The notes under the pieces were generated by a model that worked only from the letters and a program-made list of their open reading frames with translations, had not been told where the DNA came from and did no database searches. From an uncultured Methanosarcinales archaeon (GTDB lineage Archaea; Nanobdellota; Nanobdellia; Woesearchaeales; GW2011-AR9): a DNA stretch of 64,000 bases. The DNA is taken from positions 6,524 to 70,523 of the forward strand of contig CAZGQD010000005.1 of assembly GCA_964527395.1 (NCBI GenBank). Reading direction: 5' to 3'. The translations under genes were made by a program, and so were the position numbers. Of the stretch, positions 17,800-64,000 are shown piece after piece (positions within the stretch are counted from its first letter, which is position 1; each line of letters starts with the position of its first letter).

Positions 17800-19386
<1,587 letters not shown>

Positions 19387-19844: not shown

Positions 19845-22800
19845 AAACCTACTGTAAACTATTAGGTGGATGACTTGGCTCAAGCGCCGATGAAGGACGT
19901 GGCAAGCGACGATATGCCTAGGCGAGCCGAAAGCAGGCTTTGAACCTAGGATTTCCGAATAAGACATCTGTTTAAGCCCATTAGGGCTAGGGAACGCAGG
20001 GAATTGAAGCGTCTTAGTACCTGCAGGAAAAGAAAGCAATAGCGATGCTGTGATTAAGAGCGACTGAAAGCAGCACAGTTCAAACTGAATCCTATGCAGT
20101 AATGCATAGGAGATGTGGTGTTGAGGACTTTCTTTTAGACCGTTTTTTTGACTTGAAATTTTTTGGAAAATTATACCTTAGAGGGTGATAGTCCCGTAAA
20201 GGAAGAGAAAATGGTTTTGGAAGTATCCTGAGTAGTGTCTCCTGGAAACGAGGCATGAATGTGGGGCGCACTAAGCCCCAAAACTAAATACGTCTTGAGT
20301 CCGATAGCAAACGAGTACCGTGAGGGAATGTTGAAAAGTACCCGTAAAAGGGAGTTAAAAGACCTGAAACCTAATAGTGATAGAGTGGTAGTGCCTTTCG
20401 AGGTTCTACCGTTCGTTTTGAATAACGTGCCAGGGAGTGTATCTATGTGGCAAGGAGGAATCCGCAGCGAAAGCGAGATCCCGCAACTTGTGAGGGGAGT
20501 GGTATGAAAGTGCCATAAGTCACGTGGATACGACCTGAAACCGGTCGATCTATTCTTGGGCAAGGTGAAGTGGGGGTAAGACCCCATGGAGGCCTGAAGG
20601 AGTTCTGTGTGCAAGCGTTTCTCTGACCTGAGAATAGGGGTGAAAAGCCAATCGAGATCGGCGATAGCAGGTTCCTAATGAAATTGACCTTAGTCAAGTC
20701 TTGTATGAGAGTGAATAGGTTGTAGAGATACGGATTGGGGGTTTTGGCGGGGAAACCTGTCGGCCTCCTGTCCAACTCCAAATGCCTATTCCTTGTAGAA
20801 TACAGGAAACAGGGAGTCTTGGGGTAAACTTGACTTCCGAGAGGGGAACAACCCAGACTATGGTTAAGGCCCCTAAGTGTCAGCTAAGTGATAAAGGGTA
20901 AACGGTGTCCGTGATCTTAGACAGCGAGGAGGTTGGCTTAGAAGCAGCCATCCTTTAAAAAGTGCGTAACAGCTTACTCGTTGAGTTCGTAAGCCTCGAA
21001 GATTGACGGGTCTAAGTTAGCTGCCGATACCATAGACCACGATAAGTGGGTGTAATTAGGCGTTCTGTTAGGGTAGAAGGAAGTGTGTGAGCATTTTTGG
21101 ACCTTGCAGAAATGAAAATCCTGGTGAGAGTAGGAACAGAGCAAAGTGAGATTCTTTGTCGTCGTAAGGGCAAGGGTTCCTTGGCAATGAACATCAGCCA
21201 AGGGTTAGTCAGTCCTAAGGAATTCCGTAACCGGATAATCCGATAGGGAAACAGGTTAATATTCCTGTACTATTTTTGTATATGTGGTGACACAAGGTCA
21301 TCTTTCTGACACTTTGGGATATGCGTTGGAGTTTTATCTGACTCTTTAATTAGGATAAGTCAATGGAGTACCGTAACGGTGAGAAGTTGAGTAAAACTAA
21401 GAATAGTGGGCCTATGGTCCATTTCGCAGATTCCTGGAGTCCATGAAAAGGGAAGTGACATAAATCAAAAATAACTGTACCCAGAACCAGCACTGGTGCC
21501 CCTAGGTGAGAAGCCTAAGACGTGCAAGAGTAATCCATCTAAGGGAATTCGGCAAATTAGTCCCGTAGCTTCGGTTGAAGGGATCCCTGGACTCGTCCTT
21601 TAGGGAGCGAGTTCAGGGCGCAGTGACTAGGGTGGTCCGACTGTTTACCAAAAACAAAACATCCTGCTAGTCGGAAACGATGTGTATAGGATGTGATACC
21701 TGCCCAGTGCGAGTACTTTAAGCCTCGTTTCAACGGGGTGAAGAGCTTGTAAACGGCGGGAGTAACTATAACTCTCTTAAGGTAAGCACTTTCGTTGCTT
21801 TAAGATCCATAGTAAACAGATCGGTTATACTAAAGAAGAATGGAATAAAAATTTGGCTATATGCTGGAAAGTCTGAGTATATTATGATAGGATATTATCT
21901 TGGTGACAGGATAACGATCCCTAAAAATTCATAATTGCAGAAAATCAGCAGGAAAGATTTCTTTGAATTAATTATTTTAAATTTGTTTAAAGAAAAATCC
22001 TCAGAGACTACACGCCAAACACAATAAATTAGTAATTTTTTATTTGTGAAGATATAGTCCGACCTGTATAGCGATATACAGAGGTTAGCAGAAATGTCTA
22101 GCCCGCCATGAATTAATTTTGTGGTAAGTAAACTAATAATTAGTTGAAGTAACAGATGTGAGCGAAATGCCTTGTCGGTTGAATGCCGACCTGCATGAAT
22201 GGTATAACGAGATCGCCACTGTCCCTAGATGGAGTCTTCCGAACACTCCTTTCTGGTGCAAAGGCCAGAGATTTCCAGTGGGAAGCGAAGACCCCGTGAA
22301 ACTTTACTGTAGCCTGTCGCTGTGTTTTGAATTATGTTGTATAGCGTATGTGGGAGCTGTTTGAGGTTAATGACGTCAGTTAGTAACTGAGGCGCCAATG
22401 TAACACCACACTTTATGATTTAGAACACTTACGTGTTTAACACGGACAACGATTGGTGGACAGTTTGGCTGGGGTGGCACGCAGTTGAAAAGATATCAAT
22501 TGCGCCCAATGGTAGGCTCATACGGTTTAGAAATCCGTAGTAGAGTGCAAGGGCAAACGCCTGCCTGATTGAATTTTAAACATAACGAAATTCAAACACG
22601 AAAGTGTGGCCTAGCGAACTTCAATACTTTACTAGTGAGAGTTTGAAATGACTGAAAAGTTACTCCGGGGATAACTGAGTTGTCGCGCCCGAGAGTCCAT
22701 ATCGACGGCGCGGTTTGCTACTTCGATGTCGGCTCTTCCTATCCTGGCGGTGCAGAAGCTGCCAAGGGTGGGGGTGTTCACCCATTAAAAGGGATCGTGA

Positions 22801-28990: not shown

Positions 28991-29156
28991 GTGCTATCAG
29001 ACTTTTCGAAATTGTAAGACAATTTCCAAACTCTCAACGCTTTGCTTATGAGGTTAGTGCAGGCGTGACCACTCGCTCTGAATTTTTCCACTTCGTAGAA
29101 AAATGCTCGTTAATATGATCTTGCTGTGAATGATATTGCCAGTGAAGGGATAGCAC
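28991..29156 (+). ncRNA. candidate structured RNA, family copy A (166 nt)
   Basis: Closing stem GTGCTATC/GATAGCAC. Conserved TCAGAC, GCAGGCGTGACCAC, AATGCTCGTT and TTGCCAGTGAAGGGA blocks are shared with 50217, 59592(-) and 63759. Inner hairpin ATTTTTC/GAAAAAT. Confidence 0.55.
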
Positions 29157-45480: not shown

Positions 45481-45641
45481 AAGAATCTGTAGGAGATGTA
45501 TGGGGGGCGTTTGTTGCAGAACGGGAACTGTTTCGCTAGAGTAATAGTAAACGACCCGAGAGAGTGGAACGAACGAGTGTTGAGAAGAGCCTATTCGCTT
45601 TTCGCCCTCATCGAGCAACGCGAGATCTCCTACAGATTCTT
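45481..45641. ncRNA. 161-nt GC-enriched island closed by a perfect 17-bp stem (candidate structured RNA or MITE-like element); strand unknown
   Basis: AAGAATCTGTAGGAGAT (45481-97) pairs with ATCTCCTACAGATTCTT (45625-41). Inner helix GGGGGCG (45503-09)/CGCCCTC (45603-09). Located in a divergent intergenic region. Confidence 0.45.
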
Positions 45642-49267: not shown

Positions 49268-50143
49268 TTATAAAATTGTTGTAAGCCAGTAAAATATTGG
49301 GCTACTAAATATGAACACTGCATAAGCTGTTAAGAAACTTGGTAAGAAAGGTACACCTTCTTTGATTTTTACAGTTTCTATTTTACCGTTAGCGAAAAGC
49401 ATTTGAATTTTTTCAATATCATCACGTTCTAAAGTTTTTTTCTTTACTATCATTTTGTGATTTTCTTTTACTTTCTGTGAGAGCCAGTCTCCTGGAACTA
49501 GGTCTAAGGGGCTTTTGTATATATAGAAACAACTAGCTTCTACAGCTGTTAAGAAGATGAAAAATGGGTATAGGAGTGGTAGGACTATTGGGAAGATTAA
49601 GAGGCTTGGATCAATTTTGTAAGAGAAGATTCCTAATATGATTGCTACTAATATGCTTAAGTAAAATAGTCTTCTTAGTTTTCTATGTCTTTTTTTTGCT
49701 TCTTTTTTGAAAAGTTTCCAGTGCTCTGTCATTACTTTTGCACTCCAGAATAATGACCATGCTGAACCTATGAATAATAAGAGGAGTAAGAAAAAAGGAA
49801 TTTCTAGTCCATTGAATTGTGAGGATTCTTTTAGTATTGGGAATGTGAAGTCTGCTCCTAGAAGTGCTCCCATAGCCATTAAAACTTTACTGTCTGCTCC
49901 TCCCCAACCACCTTGGTAGTATAGGAATGTTGCTATTATGAGCATGATTGCGAAACCTAAAAGTGCTGAGAAAAAGTAGTTCCATCCTGTTTCTAAGCTG
50001 ATAATTAGTTTTATGCTAAGGATTATTATTAGAAGACCCATACTGATTAGATCGTATACTTCTCTTTCTTTAATATCTTGAATAGAAGCTAATATGAGGA
50101 AGATGAAAACTAGTGTGGAAATGAATGTAGTGATTGCAACCAT
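49268..50143 (-). CDS. archaeal prepilin/preflagellin peptidase (A24 family)
   Basis: First Asp motif ASIQDIKEREVYD and second motif GGWGGADSKVLMAMG. Polytopic membrane protein. Confidence 0.75.
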   Translation of the reverse strand: MVAITTFISTLVFIFLILASIQDIKEREVYDLISMGLLIIILSIKLIISLETGWNYFFSALLGFAIMLIIATFLYYQGGWGGADSKVLMAMGALLGADFTFPILKESSQFNGLEIPFFLLLLLFIGSAWSLFWSAKVMTEHWKLFKKEAKKRHRKLRRLFYLSILVAIILGIFSYKIDPSLLIFPIVLPLLYPFFIFLTAVEASCFYIYKSPLDLVPGDWLSQKVKENHKMIVKKKTLERDDIEKIQMLFANGKIETVKIKEGVPFLPSFLTAYAVFIFSSPIFYWLTTIL

Positions 50144-50216
50144 GGTTAGTAGATTTATTTTTTAGTATATAAAACAAGGGGTTTACTAGGTTTGGAGATA
50201 GTATCTTTGTTGTGAA

Positions 50217-50396
50217 GAAAATTGGCAGTATCAGACTTATCCTCAAGCAAGCTTTCGGGACTTGGTTCACATGTTCACCAAGTATCGCAGGCGTGACCAT
50301 TTCGCGTACTATCTCTGCGAGCAAAGCTCTTAGGGCGCTCATTGTTTAGATCTTGTGTTGAATAACATTGCCAGTGAGGAGATGCTGCCAATTTTC
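50217..50396 (+). ncRNA. candidate structured RNA, family copy B (180 nt)
   Basis: 16-bp closing stem GAAAATTGGCAGTATC/GATGCTGCCAATTTTC. TCAGAC, GCAGGCGTGACCA and TTGCCAGTGAGGAGA blocks. Variable arm with hairpin CTTGGT..ACCAAG shared with copy D. Confidence 0.55.
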
Positions 50397-50615
50397 CTTG
50401 AGTAGTATCTTTTTGAGTTGGATTTGTTGTAGTAGTTTATTGAGTTGGAGTTTTTGCTGATGTTAGGATTGAATCTTTTGTTTCTTTAGAAGCTAGTTGT
50501 GGTGCTGTTGCTCCTCTGTGTGCAAAGGTTTATAAACGATTTCTTCGTCTTTTTATTGGTAAATATAGATTTGAGATCAGTTTATAGATTAATATTTTTA
50601 GAGAGGTTGTTAAAG

Positions 50616-52217: not shown

Positions 52218-52240
52218 GGTTGTGTTTTTTAGTTTTCTTT

Positions 52241-52325
52241 TGTTATCTGGATAACAATTTGTTATAATAATAACAAAATTGTATTAAAAGTGTTATTATA
52301 ATAACAAATTGTTACTATTATAACA
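52241..52325. promoter_or_regulatory. array of four 16-nt inverted repeats TGTTAT-N4-ATAACA
   Basis: Units are at 52241, 52260, 52291 and 52310 (spacing 19/31/19): TGTTATctggATAACA, TGTTATaataATAACA, TGTTATtataATAACA, TGTTACtattATAACA. Confidence 0.6.
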
Positions 52326-53097: not shown

Positions 53098-53223
53098 GGC
53101 GGTGTGGCTTAGTCTGGTCTATGGCGCTGTGCTCATATGTAATTGAGCGATGAGACTTAATTGTCGATGACTTATTCAACCTGGGCGACACAGAAGTCCC
53201 GCGTTCAAATCGCGGCACCGCCA
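53098..53223 (+). tRNA. tRNA with CAT anticodon (elongator Met or Ile2) carrying a 50-nt intron at 37/38
   Basis: Acceptor GGCGGTG/CACCGCC. Anticodon stem CTGTG/CACAG. Loop CT-CAT-A then intron 53138..53187. BHB: CTCA/TGGG central helix with bulges TAT and CGA. T arm CCGCG-TTCAAAT-CGCGG. Confidence 0.8.
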
Positions 53224-54126: not shown

Positions 54127-54156
54127 GTAGGTTTTATTGAATTTGTTTTTTTTGAT

Positions 54157-54541
54157 AAAATGGTAGAAAAAATAGTTGTAGGAATTGTTGTATCTGATTC
54201 AAGAGTATTGATGGTTCTAAGATCAGTAATTGAAGATAATCTTTCATGGGTGTTTCCAGGAGGAAAGGTTCTAGATTCTGAGGGAGAAGAAGCAGCAGTT
54301 TTGCGTGAGATTAGTGAAGAAACTGGCCTTATTTGTAAAGTAACTCAGAAATTAGGTGAGAGAATTCACCCAAATAGTGGAAAAATGATAATTTATTTTG
54401 CTTGTGAATATGTTAGTGGTGAATTGAATGATTCTAGTTCTGAAATAGAAAGGGTGGAATGGGTAGATATAAAACAAGTTAAAGAGAGAATAACTAGTGA
54501 TCTTTTTGATAAAGTTGAAGATTTTTTAGATGAGATTTAAT
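54157..54541 (+). repeat. 385-bp direct repeat, copy 1
   Basis: Identical to 55151..55535 except at 2 positions (54204 a/t and 54537 t/g). Confidence 0.9.
54160..54540 (+). CDS. NUDIX hydrolase (copy 1 of a duplicated gene)
   Basis: Nudix box GGKVLDSEGEEAAVLREISEETGL. Confidence 0.85.
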   Translation: MVEKIVVGIVVSDSRVLMVLRSVIEDNLSWVFPGGKVLDSEGEEAAVLREISEETGLICKVTQKLGERIHPNSGKMIIYFACEYVSGELNDSSSEIERVEWVDIKQVKERITSDLFDKVEDFLDEI

Positions 54542-54594
54542 CATTTTTATTTAAATATAATCTCATTGAATTATAAATTTAGGAGTTTGGTATC

Positions 54595-54999: not shown

Positions 55000-55150
55000 T
55001 AGCCATGTTCTTTCGAAAAAATTATATAGATTAATGATTATTTTATAGAAAAATATAGAAATTTAGTATTTTTACTAACTAGATCAAAAATAGTCAATTA
55101 AGACTTGAATTTGTTACTGATACTGGGCGTTGGCGCTCTTTTTTTCTTAG

Positions 55151-55535
55151 AAAATGGTAGAAAAAATAGTTGTAGGAATTGTTGTATCTGATTCAAGTGT
55201 ATTGATGGTTCTAAGATCAGTAATTGAAGATAATCTTTCATGGGTGTTTCCAGGAGGAAAGGTTCTAGATTCTGAGGGAGAAGAAGCAGCAGTTTTGCGT
55301 GAGATTAGTGAAGAAACTGGCCTTATTTGTAAAGTAACTCAGAAATTAGGTGAGAGAATTCACCCAAATAGTGGAAAAATGATAATTTATTTTGCTTGTG
55401 AATATGTTAGTGGTGAATTGAATGATTCTAGTTCTGAAATAGAAAGGGTGGAATGGGTAGATATAAAACAAGTTAAAGAGAGAATAACTAGTGATCTTTT
55501 TGATAAAGTTGAAGATTTTTTAGATGAGAGTTAAT
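55151..55535 (+). repeat. 385-bp direct repeat, copy 2
   Basis: See 54157..54541. The upstream ttgaatttgtt is also shared, but copy 2 has an extra GC-rich 23-mer actgatactgggcgttggcgctc. Confidence 0.9.
55154..55534 (+). CDS. NUDIX hydrolase (copy 2; 124/126 aa identical to 54160..54540)
   Basis: Same Nudix box. Differs only at R14S and the last residue. Confidence 0.85.
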   Translation: MVEKIVVGIVVSDSSVLMVLRSVIEDNLSWVFPGGKVLDSEGEEAAVLREISEETGLICKVTQKLGERIHPNSGKMIIYFACEYVSGELNDSSSEIERVEWVDIKQVKERITSDLFDKVEDFLDES

Positions 55536-55649
55536 AATTATATAAGTGGAATAAGAGTTATATTTAGATACCAGTTGGTAGCAGAATGAGATTGAGAATC
55601 TTATCTTTTGTGCATAATATTTAAAATAACTGATGTTTTTGAATGATTT

Positions 55650-59591: not shown

Positions 59592-59727
59592 AAGAAGATG
59601 GCGCCGTCCCTTCACTGGTAATGTTACTCACAACAAGATCTAAACAACGAGCATTTTGTGACTAACAGGAGCAAAATAGAACGCGAAGTGGTCACGCTTG
59701 CACTAAGTCTGACAGTGCCATCTTCTT
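59592..59727 (-). ncRNA. candidate structured RNA, family copy C (136 nt, minimal form)
   Basis: The minus strand reads AAGAAGATGGCACTGTC-AGAC...ACCAGTGAAGG-GACGGCGCCATCTTCTT. It lacks the variable arm of copies A, B and D. Inner hairpin ATTTTG/CAAAAT. Confidence 0.55.
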
Positions 59728-63758: not shown

Positions 63759-63939
63759 AGAGATTAGCGCTGTCAGACCTAACCTCACTGGAACCGTTCG
63801 GAACTTGGTTCACATGTTCACCAAGTAATGCAGGCGTGTCTACTTCGCTGTGATTTTTGCTCCTTTCAGTCACAAAAATGCTCGTTGTTTAAGTCTTGTT
63901 TTGAATGTAATTGCCAGTGAGGAGACGGTGCTAATCTCT
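63759..63939 (+). ncRNA. candidate structured RNA, family copy D (181 nt)
   Basis: 16-bp closing stem AGAGATTAGCGCTGTC/GACGGTGCTAATCTCT with two G.U pairs. Extra 9-bp helix CCTCACTGG/CCAGTGAGG. Inner hairpin ATTTTTG/CAAAAAT. Confidence 0.55.
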
Positions 63940-64000
63940 AATTTCGAGCAAAGCTCTCTTGATTTTGCTGTGCAAAGTTTTGTTGAGCATGATTTTGTTG

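Follow-up and report, generated by a model that had tools for sequence, protein, structure and literature searches.

A four-copy family of structured non-coding intergenic elements with a compensated terminal helix in a marine DPANN archaeon

We identified four homologous intergenic elements (copies A-D; Table 1), 136-181 nt long and with the same order of conserved blocks, in a 64-kb stretch of archaeal DNA (the window, by which we mean the whole stretch that was analysed). The four copies constitute a homologous, non-coding, strand-specific family, and the four-copy element is real and previously undescribed. Our favored reading, held with slightly less than even confidence, is that the loci are paralogous and encode a structured small RNA specific to this lineage, ~135-180 nt long, clamped at its ends and possibly bound by L7Ae. 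Retention of the terminal helix (P1) through compensatory mutations is well supported; independent transcription, a kink-turn fold with L7Ae binding, the internal fold, and any trans-acting role are what we infer from the sequences.

Table 1. Copies of the element, the parts of reference copy B, and the two copies of a second family (E); positions are those of the window unless another locus is named (CM, covariance model).
Feature	Position	Strand	Description	Scores	Neighboring genes
Copy A	28991-29156	+	166 nt; short 8-bp P1; own variable domain with hairpin GAAAUUGU/ACAAUUUC	nhmmer E 8.5e-46; CM 138.5 bits	268-aa gene on one side, TENA_THI-4 gene on the other
Copy B (reference)	50217-50396	+	180 nt; complete element	nhmmer E 4.8e-59; CM 184.8 bits; RNA MFE -60.9 kcal/mol, z = -3.7	
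B: P1 5′ arm	50217-50230	+	GAAAAUUGGCAGUA; pairs with 50383-50396		
B: invariant UCAGAC	50231-50236	+	proposed bulged k-turn strand: L1-L3 = UCA, then G.A, A.G		
B: P2 5′ strand	50241-50245	+	CCUCA; partner UGAGG at 50375-50379		
B: variable-domain hairpin	50260-50283	+	ACUUGGU-UCACAUGUUC-ACCAAGU; identical in D, other hairpins in A, absent in C		
B: conserved block and small hairpin	50287-50306	+	GCAGGCGUG, conserved loop ACCAYUU; invariant columns		
B: hairpin	50313-50335	+	contains GAGC-AAA-GCUC; takes the place of the AUUUUUG/CAAAAAU hairpin in A, C, and D		
B: most conserved 3′ block	50337-50382	+	GCUCAUUGUUUAGAUCUUGU..UGA.U...AUUGCCAGUGAGGAGA; 71-81% identity in all pairs, at least 21 invariant positions		
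B: P1 3′ arm	50383-50396	+	UGCUGCCAAUUUUC; U.G wobble at alignment columns 14/175 common to B, C, and D		
Copy C	59592-59727	-	136 nt; minimal form without the variable domain	nhmmer E 2e-41; MFE -47.2 kcal/mol, z = -4.2	SPFH gene and 218-aa gene, divergent
Copy D	63759-63939	+	181 nt	nhmmer E 4.7e-58; CM 197 bits; MFE -59.3 kcal/mol, z = -3.7	
Family E, copy E1	45481-45641		GC-rich; perfect 17-bp terminal helix	folding z -5.2	
Family E, copy E2	18460-18597 of locus L065		~8 kb past the window end; 18-bp terminal stem of unrelated sequence		

Direct reading, alignment, and nhmmer bear out the four intergenic loci, their strands, and the conserved block order of the original prediction. A stem arm is followed by UCAGAC, an optional inserted domain, UA.UGCARGCGUG.C.A within a small hairpin, a variable hairpin, GCUCRUU....R.UCUUG...UGA.U...AUURCCAGUGARGRGA, and the complementary stem arm. 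An nhmmer profile built from the alignment recovered only these four copies in the window (E 2e-41 to 5e-59, the rest being noise), and the same four were the sole matches of the covariance model there; the latter found no extra copies in the 10 kb of the same genome past the window end (~74 kb covered in total). The copies had also been described as GC-enriched and non-coding, and both descriptions hold: their GC content is 0.41-0.46 vs. 0.347 for the window, and none of the six frames is free of stop codons in all four copies, so that a small-ORF reading of the elements was rejected. A 53-aa ORF is annotated over copy D in one assembly; it is not kept in the other copies. Folding z-scores against shuffles range from -3.7 to -4.2 for B, C, and D, and copy A (-0.8) folds no better than its shuffles.

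The window contains an archaeal rRNA operon (16S-tRNAAla-23S) with a group I intron inside the 23S gene, and proteins similar to the SPFH protein encoded in it are annotated as Woesearchaeota or Nanoarchaeota. The closest genome that we found is the Saanich Inlet MAG GCA_018697095.1 (81% identity in the SPFH protein), and contigs identical to the window originate in marine metagenomes; the other assemblies are broken at about 3.6 kb of the window. The host is a Woesearchaeota-like DPANN archaeon of marine metagenomes, as guessed from the sequence beforehand.

P1 is 8 bp long in A and 16-17 bp in B, C, and D; copy C also has an irregular outer extension of this helix. In the four-sequence alignment, 10 of the 16 P1 pairs show compensatory double changes and 55 of the 56 cells (98.2%) are paired, values that none of 500 shuffles reached, in statistics that rest on four paralogues from one genome. 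When the partner strand was slid by 1-3 columns as a control, only 36-53% of the cells paired. The non-Watson-Crick cells, read on the strands of Table 1, comprise four G.U wobbles vs. one A.C mismatch. The stems are thus complementary in every copy, with G.U pairs, as first proposed; the accompanying claim that they are completely different in sequence was overstated, since the arms are 50-75% identical between pairs of copies (compared with 59-78% for the core). Judging from this alignment, the P1 arms are homologous and have diverged with compensation. Because they are not unrelated sequences peculiar to each locus, the stems cannot be target hairpins that existed before the element arrived; and since the arms have diverged by 25-50% with nearly every cell still paired, pairing has been selected in the history of every copy. 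The pattern fits purifying selection on pairing at each locus, and not the neutral decay of old insertions. The wobbles on the given strand, together with the U.G pair shared by three copies, fix the strand and argue for RNA or at least for a single-stranded structure.

Directly inside P1, the junction reads stem-UCA-GA-C(U/C)U ... (A/G)G(G/A)GA-stem and is invariant in all four copies, beside a helix that varies freely. The standard definition of a kink-turn (k-turn) is a 3-nt bulge followed by tandem G:A and A:G pairs (PMC8191799). At the sequence level the junction carries this signature, with UCA as the bulge and with G19.A173 and A20.G172 as the tandem pairs. Published rules also state that C at 3b favors k-turn folding if 3b:3n is not a Watson-Crick pair, and that G:C at -1b:-1n disfavors ion-induced folding (PMC8191799). 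In the elements, 3b:3n is C:G in A and C and C:A in B and D, and -1b:-1n is A:U in A and B and G:C in C and D; by these rules, the junctions of A and C would need protein to fold. The likeness to k-turns of the Kt-7 type lies in the canonical helix P1, in a 5′ strand with the UCA bulge and G-A, and in a 3′ strand with G-A directly before the helix. The differences are that the motif occupies the base of a 16-bp closing helix, in an RNA of no known family, and that the C:G at 3b:3n (A and C) and the G:C at -1b:-1n (C and D) predict poor protein-free folding.

RNAalifold prefers a competing register, in which U16-A173 and C17-G172 are paired and an AGA bulge is left. After the G.A pairs, A and C continue with C21-G171, U22.G170, and a U-A169 pair, and B and D with C.A and then two pairs, the stronger CCUCA/UGAGG beginning 5 nt later. 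The next helix, P2, can be read from the sequences as CCUCA(CUGG)/(CCAG)UGAGG in B and D and as CUU(UU)/(GA)AGG in A and C. The 3′ purine block changes together with its 5′ partner (GAAGGGA with CUU(UU) in A and C; GAGGAGA with CCUCA in B and D), and these co-changing variants support P2 next to the junction. Of the proposed kink-turn, then, the sequence signature is present and invariant, but a Watson-Crick register competes with it and the following helix is ambiguous in B and D. We regard a kink-turn as a reasonable reading that is only plausible, and the L7Ae site as a predicted one.

The copies differ most visibly in the domain inserted after UCAGAC: B and D share an identical 24-nt hairpin, A has a different sequence, and C is without the domain. 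Between B and D, identity is 87% in this domain and 61% in the core; such mosaic copies point to exchange between copies or to uneven constraint. Further in lies a hairpin that reads ATTTTTC/GAAAAAT in A, ATTTTG/CAAAAT in C, and ATTTTTG/CAAAAAT in D, with one compensatory pair; the covarying inner hairpin described earlier is therefore present in these three copies, and B has a different hairpin in its place. A 13-mer of that B hairpin, CGAGCAAAGCTCT, recurs 6 nt downstream of copy D. Candidate long-range pairings (GCARG with CUUGY, and the hairpin loop CACU with AGUG of CCAGUGA) show one-sided changes only. Real covariation is limited to P1 and two hairpins, the other internal helices showing one-sided changes, and the single-sequence folds of the copies disagree among themselves; the internal fold of the element is weakly supported.

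The genes downstream of the copies start 109-220 nt from the elements and are unrelated to one another: they encode a TENA/THI-4 protein, a coiled-coil protein, an SPFH/slipin protein, and an HTH protein that is followed by Rpb7, Spt4, and ribosomal proteins. All four copies are co-oriented with the next gene, as had been pointed out, which carries little information: at B and C the flanking genes diverge and either orientation would fit, so only A and D are informative (chance 1/4) and we give orientation no weight. In this genome, strong TATA boxes precede the tRNA genes by 35-50 nt, and TTCTTTTT follows them directly. Similar T-runs occur 12-30 nt past P1 of the elements; a promoter at a fixed distance upstream of the elements was not found, the TATA box being missing or ambiguous at A and D. 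Copy B is separated from its downstream gene by a stretch that includes a TATA-like TTTATAAA. The 3′ flanks of A, B, and C can be aligned over ~20 nt (GAG.AGTAGT.TCTT), so the repeated unit includes a short trailer; the motif TAGT.TCTTT is common on the T-rich + strand.

Copy B is flanked by a 10-nt direct repeat, TAGTATCTTT (p ~0.012 per locus, ~0.05 over four loci), the downstream half of which is part of a 3′ trailer that B shares with A and C. The longest flanking direct repeats of the other copies are 5 nt (A), 0 nt (C), and 5 nt (D), and we rejected target-site duplication as a general feature because only B has a long repeat. The Pfam lists of the neighboring genes include no RT, transposase, or partner gene near the copies. 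The two genes on either side of D, separated here by a 343-nt spacer, have orthologues in GCA_018697095.1 that abut or overlap, with no element between them. Copy C sits where the gene order differs from that genome, at a rearrangement junction or inversion boundary, and B, C, and D all belong to a segment that is rearranged relative to it and that contains integrase and LAGLIDADG genes there.

No Rfam family matched any copy, either at the gathering score or at E<=10 (searched on 50100-50500 and over the whole window), in keeping with the expectation that the element belongs to no known family. A pattern of 21 invariant positions (TCTTGNNNTGANNNNNATTNCCAGTGANGNGA) had 0 matches in JGI metagenome contigs, GTDB genome contigs (a set that includes the closest relative), and IMG/VR. 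A looser pattern (GCGTGNCNA..TCTTG..CCAGTGANGNGA) returned seven metagenome matches and a still looser version 30 viral matches, all of which the covariance model identified as noise. The model itself found nothing new in ~280 kb from 17 related genomes (mostly Woesearchaeota and other archaeal MAGs), and blastn against phage and plasmid collections gave nothing. When both open frames of the conserved block were searched as spurious ORFs against 5.8 billion proteins, the only match was the 53-aa ORF of the window itself. A scan of all fetched loci for the architecture (stem, TCAGA ... GRGA, stem) had a single match, L013 14538-14721, which is AT-rich and unrelated. The wider distribution that had been proposed, across DPANN and other archaea, did not materialize: no homologue turned up outside this organism in the databases and loci searched. 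In the literature, we found no description of such elements for DPANN or Woesearchaeota.

We compared the elements with known classes of RNAs and repeats. Like archaeal box C/D sRNAs, they are multi-copy paralogues, GC-enriched in an AT-rich genome, whose ends would form a kink-turn beside a terminal stem; unlike them, they are two to three times longer and their variable part is a helix instead of a guide. The box C/D class was rejected: there is no RUGAUGA or CUGA box and no C′/D′, UCAGAC and G(G/A)GA standing there instead, and no C/D family of Rfam matches at E<=10. The longest Watson-Crick matches to 16S, 23S, and the tRNAs are 10-11 nt (187 of 200 shuffles reach the same length), the duplex energies with rRNA and tRNA fall within the range of the shuffles with no target common to the copies, and the P1 arms are no more complementary to the rest of the window than expected by chance. 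We rejected a guide-RNA reading because complementarity to rRNA and tRNA is at chance. An H/ACA assignment was likewise rejected, since all four 3′ flanks (UGUGUG, CUUGAG, AGGUGG, AAUUUC) are without ACA and there is no Rfam match.

No covariance model matched for SRP, RNase P, 5S, tRNA-like, Y RNA, 6S, riboswitches, or ribozymes, and these classes were set aside. The elements share with Y RNA/YrlA, 6S, and SRP RNA a long helix formed by the ends, a conserved bulged motif nearby, and a variable distal domain, and Y RNAs can also occur as several paralogues in a genome. No Ro/TROVE or other partner gene is present in the annotated neighborhood of the copies, and Y and 6S RNAs are not known from archaea. 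A bulge-helix-bulge intron or circular-RNA precursor, which calls for two 3-nt bulges on opposite strands with a 4-bp helix between them, was rejected on inspection of P1, its base, and its flanks in all copies, where the single bulge (3 nt, or 8 nt) is confined to the 5′ strand; a retron or other RT-associated ncRNA was rejected as well (no RT in the Pfam lists of the neighboring genes); assignment as a riboswitch or cis-leader failed on the unrelated downstream genes and their distance. MITEs are similar in being short, non-coding, intergenic, multi-copy, and lineage-restricted, with inverted repeats at the ends and an empty orthologous site in a relative; in contrast to them, the terminal repeats of the elements covary, and near-identical copies, a parent element, and consistent target duplications are absent. 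The contention that the elements differ from a MITE is supported, the termini being among the least conserved parts and target duplications being inconsistent.

Four copies that diverged long ago, each with a near-perfect helix and invariant loops, are the expected outcome of selection at each locus, and mainly for this reason we favor a small RNA. Each RNA would be read from the strand given in Table 1 and would end at the T-run past the element. P1 would clamp the 5′ and 3′ ends, probably protecting the RNA or marking it for processing, and the invariant asymmetric loop beside it (UCA, then tandem G.A/A.G) may produce a kink-turn-like bend, which in an archaeon would be an L7Ae site. Through the bend, P2 and the U/G-rich conserved 3′ block (GCUCGUUGUUUAGAUCUUG...AUUGCCAGUGA) could be brought back against the small conserved hairpin; the result would be a compact RNP with the invariant unpaired blocks as its working surface. 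The inserted domain is presumably dispensable, because copy C is without it. Several observations count against a small RNA: restriction to one lineage, with the D site empty in the nearest relative, is unusual for an RNA under such apparent constraint; the copies are clustered in a rearranged, variable part of the genome; no promoter stands at a fixed distance from them; real covariation is confined to P1 and two hairpins, the single-sequence folds disagree, and copy A folds no better than its shuffles; and the junction has a competing Watson-Crick register and, in C and D, an unfavorable G:C at -1b:-1n.

The main rival, which we consider unlikely, is a selfish non-autonomous repeat (MITE- or SINE-like, or a structured mobile RNA or ssDNA) that an enzyme encoded elsewhere mobilizes in this lineage only. 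It is favored by the number of copies (four in ~45 kb), by their confinement to one lineage among everything searched, by the empty D site in the closest relative, by the position of C at a rearrangement junction and of B, C, and D in a plastic region that has integrase and LAGLIDADG genes in the relative, by the mosaic relationship of B and D, and by the 10-nt repeat around B; G.T pairs would be tolerable in single-stranded DNA too. However, the termini are the least conserved parts and include no shared terminal repeats, direct repeats are lacking at A, C, and D, and the one at B is of borderline significance over four loci, with half of it in the shared trailer. A transposing repeat is expected to leave decaying copies together with recent, near-identical ones; here no two copies are near-identical and all stems are near-perfect, which would need several diverged master lines, each with a very recent insertion. 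Nor is any transposase, reverse transcriptase, or partner gene linked to the copies, and the viral, phage, and plasmid collections contain no matches.

A role in cis, as a leader or 5′-UTR element of the downstream gene (riboswitch-like, a protein-binding regulator, an RNA stabilizer, or an insulator), seems to us quite improbable. All four copies do point at the next gene, 109-220 nt upstream of its start, no promoter of their own was recognized, and kink-turns are known from several riboswitches as well as from the autoregulatory leader of L7Ae; but the downstream genes are unrelated, their orthologues in relatives have no element, orientation is informative at A and D only (p = 1/4), T-runs (and at B also the TATA-like TTTATAAA) come between element and gene, and a perfect 16-bp closing helix is unlike a switching P1. 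We give very little credence to a DNA-level feature (a cruciform, or a protein-binding site for recombination, replication, or chromatin) without a relevant RNA product. Such a site would suit the long inverted repeats that enclose a conserved core, and the rearranged region with C at an inversion boundary. Arms recognized by a protein should, however, be conserved, and those of the elements covary with pairing kept, as do internal hairpins; the wobbles are strand-specific (four vs. one, and one of them conserved) and would be mismatches on the other strand or in the duplex.

A long-inverted-repeat scan of the window revealed a second family, family E (Table 1), with one copy in the window (E1) and a diverged paralogue beyond its end (E2). 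Family E resembles copies A-D in its length (135-160 nt), its GC-rich core, its copy-specific terminal helix of 17-18 bp, and its intergenic location, and no Rfam family matches E1; it differs in that its core is unrelated to theirs and has no UCAGAC/GRGA junction. A family of the same architecture gives modest support to the reading of A-D as RNA genes, and it suggests that unannotated small RNAs of this organism are generally built on one plan, a long terminal stem around a GC-rich core.

Next to nothing is known about the non-coding RNAs of DPANN archaea, whose genomes are tiny. If both families are expressed, lineage-specific structured RNAs are maintained in such a genome and are missed by standard annotation. 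A bolder proposal, which we think doubtful, is that A-D are the first members of an undescribed archaeal class of kink-turn RNPs, end-clamped, bound by L7Ae, distinct from the C/D and H/ACA guides, and with a cellular role, within a wider and fast-evolving DPANN repertoire of clamped sRNAs of which family E would be the second example. The value of the A-D family is limited by its confinement so far to four copies in one uncultured organism; together with family E, and if both are expressed, it would offer concrete targets for metatranscriptome mapping and L7Ae pull-downs. A possible relative of family E is found in a related MAG, at L013 6676-6892.

A second family of GC-rich structured elements, family E, is distinct from and unrelated to the family of the four paralogous elements A-D; one copy (E1) lies in the window, and a paralogue (E2) lies in L065, a locus of the same genome that reaches past the window end. 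The terminal stems of family E are 17-18 bp long and differ in sequence from copy to copy. E1 and E2 have in common, in order, the blocks GGGGGCGU..UUGCAGAA..AAACGACCYGAG..GAGAAGAGCCU. The predicted fold of E1 has an energy of -63.6 kcal/mol (z = -5.2), and a comparison of E1 with Rfam gave no match. One element of L013, a locus from a related MAG, has ACGACCUGA and GUUGAGAAG in common with family E and is possibly a further member. Another element of this locus, 185 nt long, may be a piece of a split or permuted tRNA, since it includes a tRNA D-arm-like stretch (GGCUCAGCCUGGCCAGCGC).

Family E copies and structured elements of L013
Element	Location	Strand	Description
E1	window 45481-45641	+	GC-rich structured element with long terminal stem
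E2	L065 18460-18597, ~7.9 kb past window end	+	paralogue of E1
Candidate family E relative	L013 6676-6892 (related Red Sea MAG)		217 nt; common sequence blocks
185-nt structured element	L013 15389-15573 (related MAG)	-	13-bp terminal stem; stops in all frames

Short repeats occur at and around copies of the A-D family. The 13-mer CGAGCAAAGCTCT (hairpin GAGC-AAA-GCTC) is found exactly twice in the window, within element B (50318-50330) and 6 nt downstream of element D (63945-63957); the pair could represent a small module in common or an exchange between loci. Copy B is also flanked by a 10-nt direct repeat, TAGTATCTTT (50199-50208 and 50403-50412; p ~0.012 at random loci). Copies A, C, and D have no flanking direct repeat of this kind, and the downstream half of the repeat at B belongs to a 3′ trailer common to B, A, and C.

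Relative to the closest genome found (GCA_018697095.1, a Saanich Inlet MAG), the segment bounded by the S17e and UDG genes (window ~40.5-68 kb) is rearranged and expanded: the pair formed by TrmB and a 218-aa gene is inverted and relocated beside SPFH, and the relative has an integrase and a LAGLIDADG gene within the segment. At ~53.7-57.9 kb lies a cluster of four small NUDIX paralogues, with HIT/DcpS_C, DUF2283, and GrpB genes as neighbours. Three of these paralogues form a tandem array of near-identical duplicates, the DNA of 54146-54545 being 98.5% identical to that of 55139-55539.

A tRNA with a ~50-nt intron (53098-53223; anticodon region CAU) was detected by Rfam and missed by ARAGORN; its intron includes GAUGAGA and CGAUGAC, motifs that resemble the C/C′ boxes of an intron-encoded C/D sRNA. 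A group I intron lies within the archaeal 23S rRNA gene (21754-22081; Rfam, 67.7 bits), and free-standing LAGLIDADG_3 genes are nearby, immediately past the window end. The intergenic stretch 52227-52325 is dense in nested AT-rich palindromes based on TGTTATAATAATAACA. Over the whole window (1-64000), the GC skew of the plus strand is strongly and persistently positive (0.07-0.48 per 2-kb bin), and its AT skew is mostly negative.
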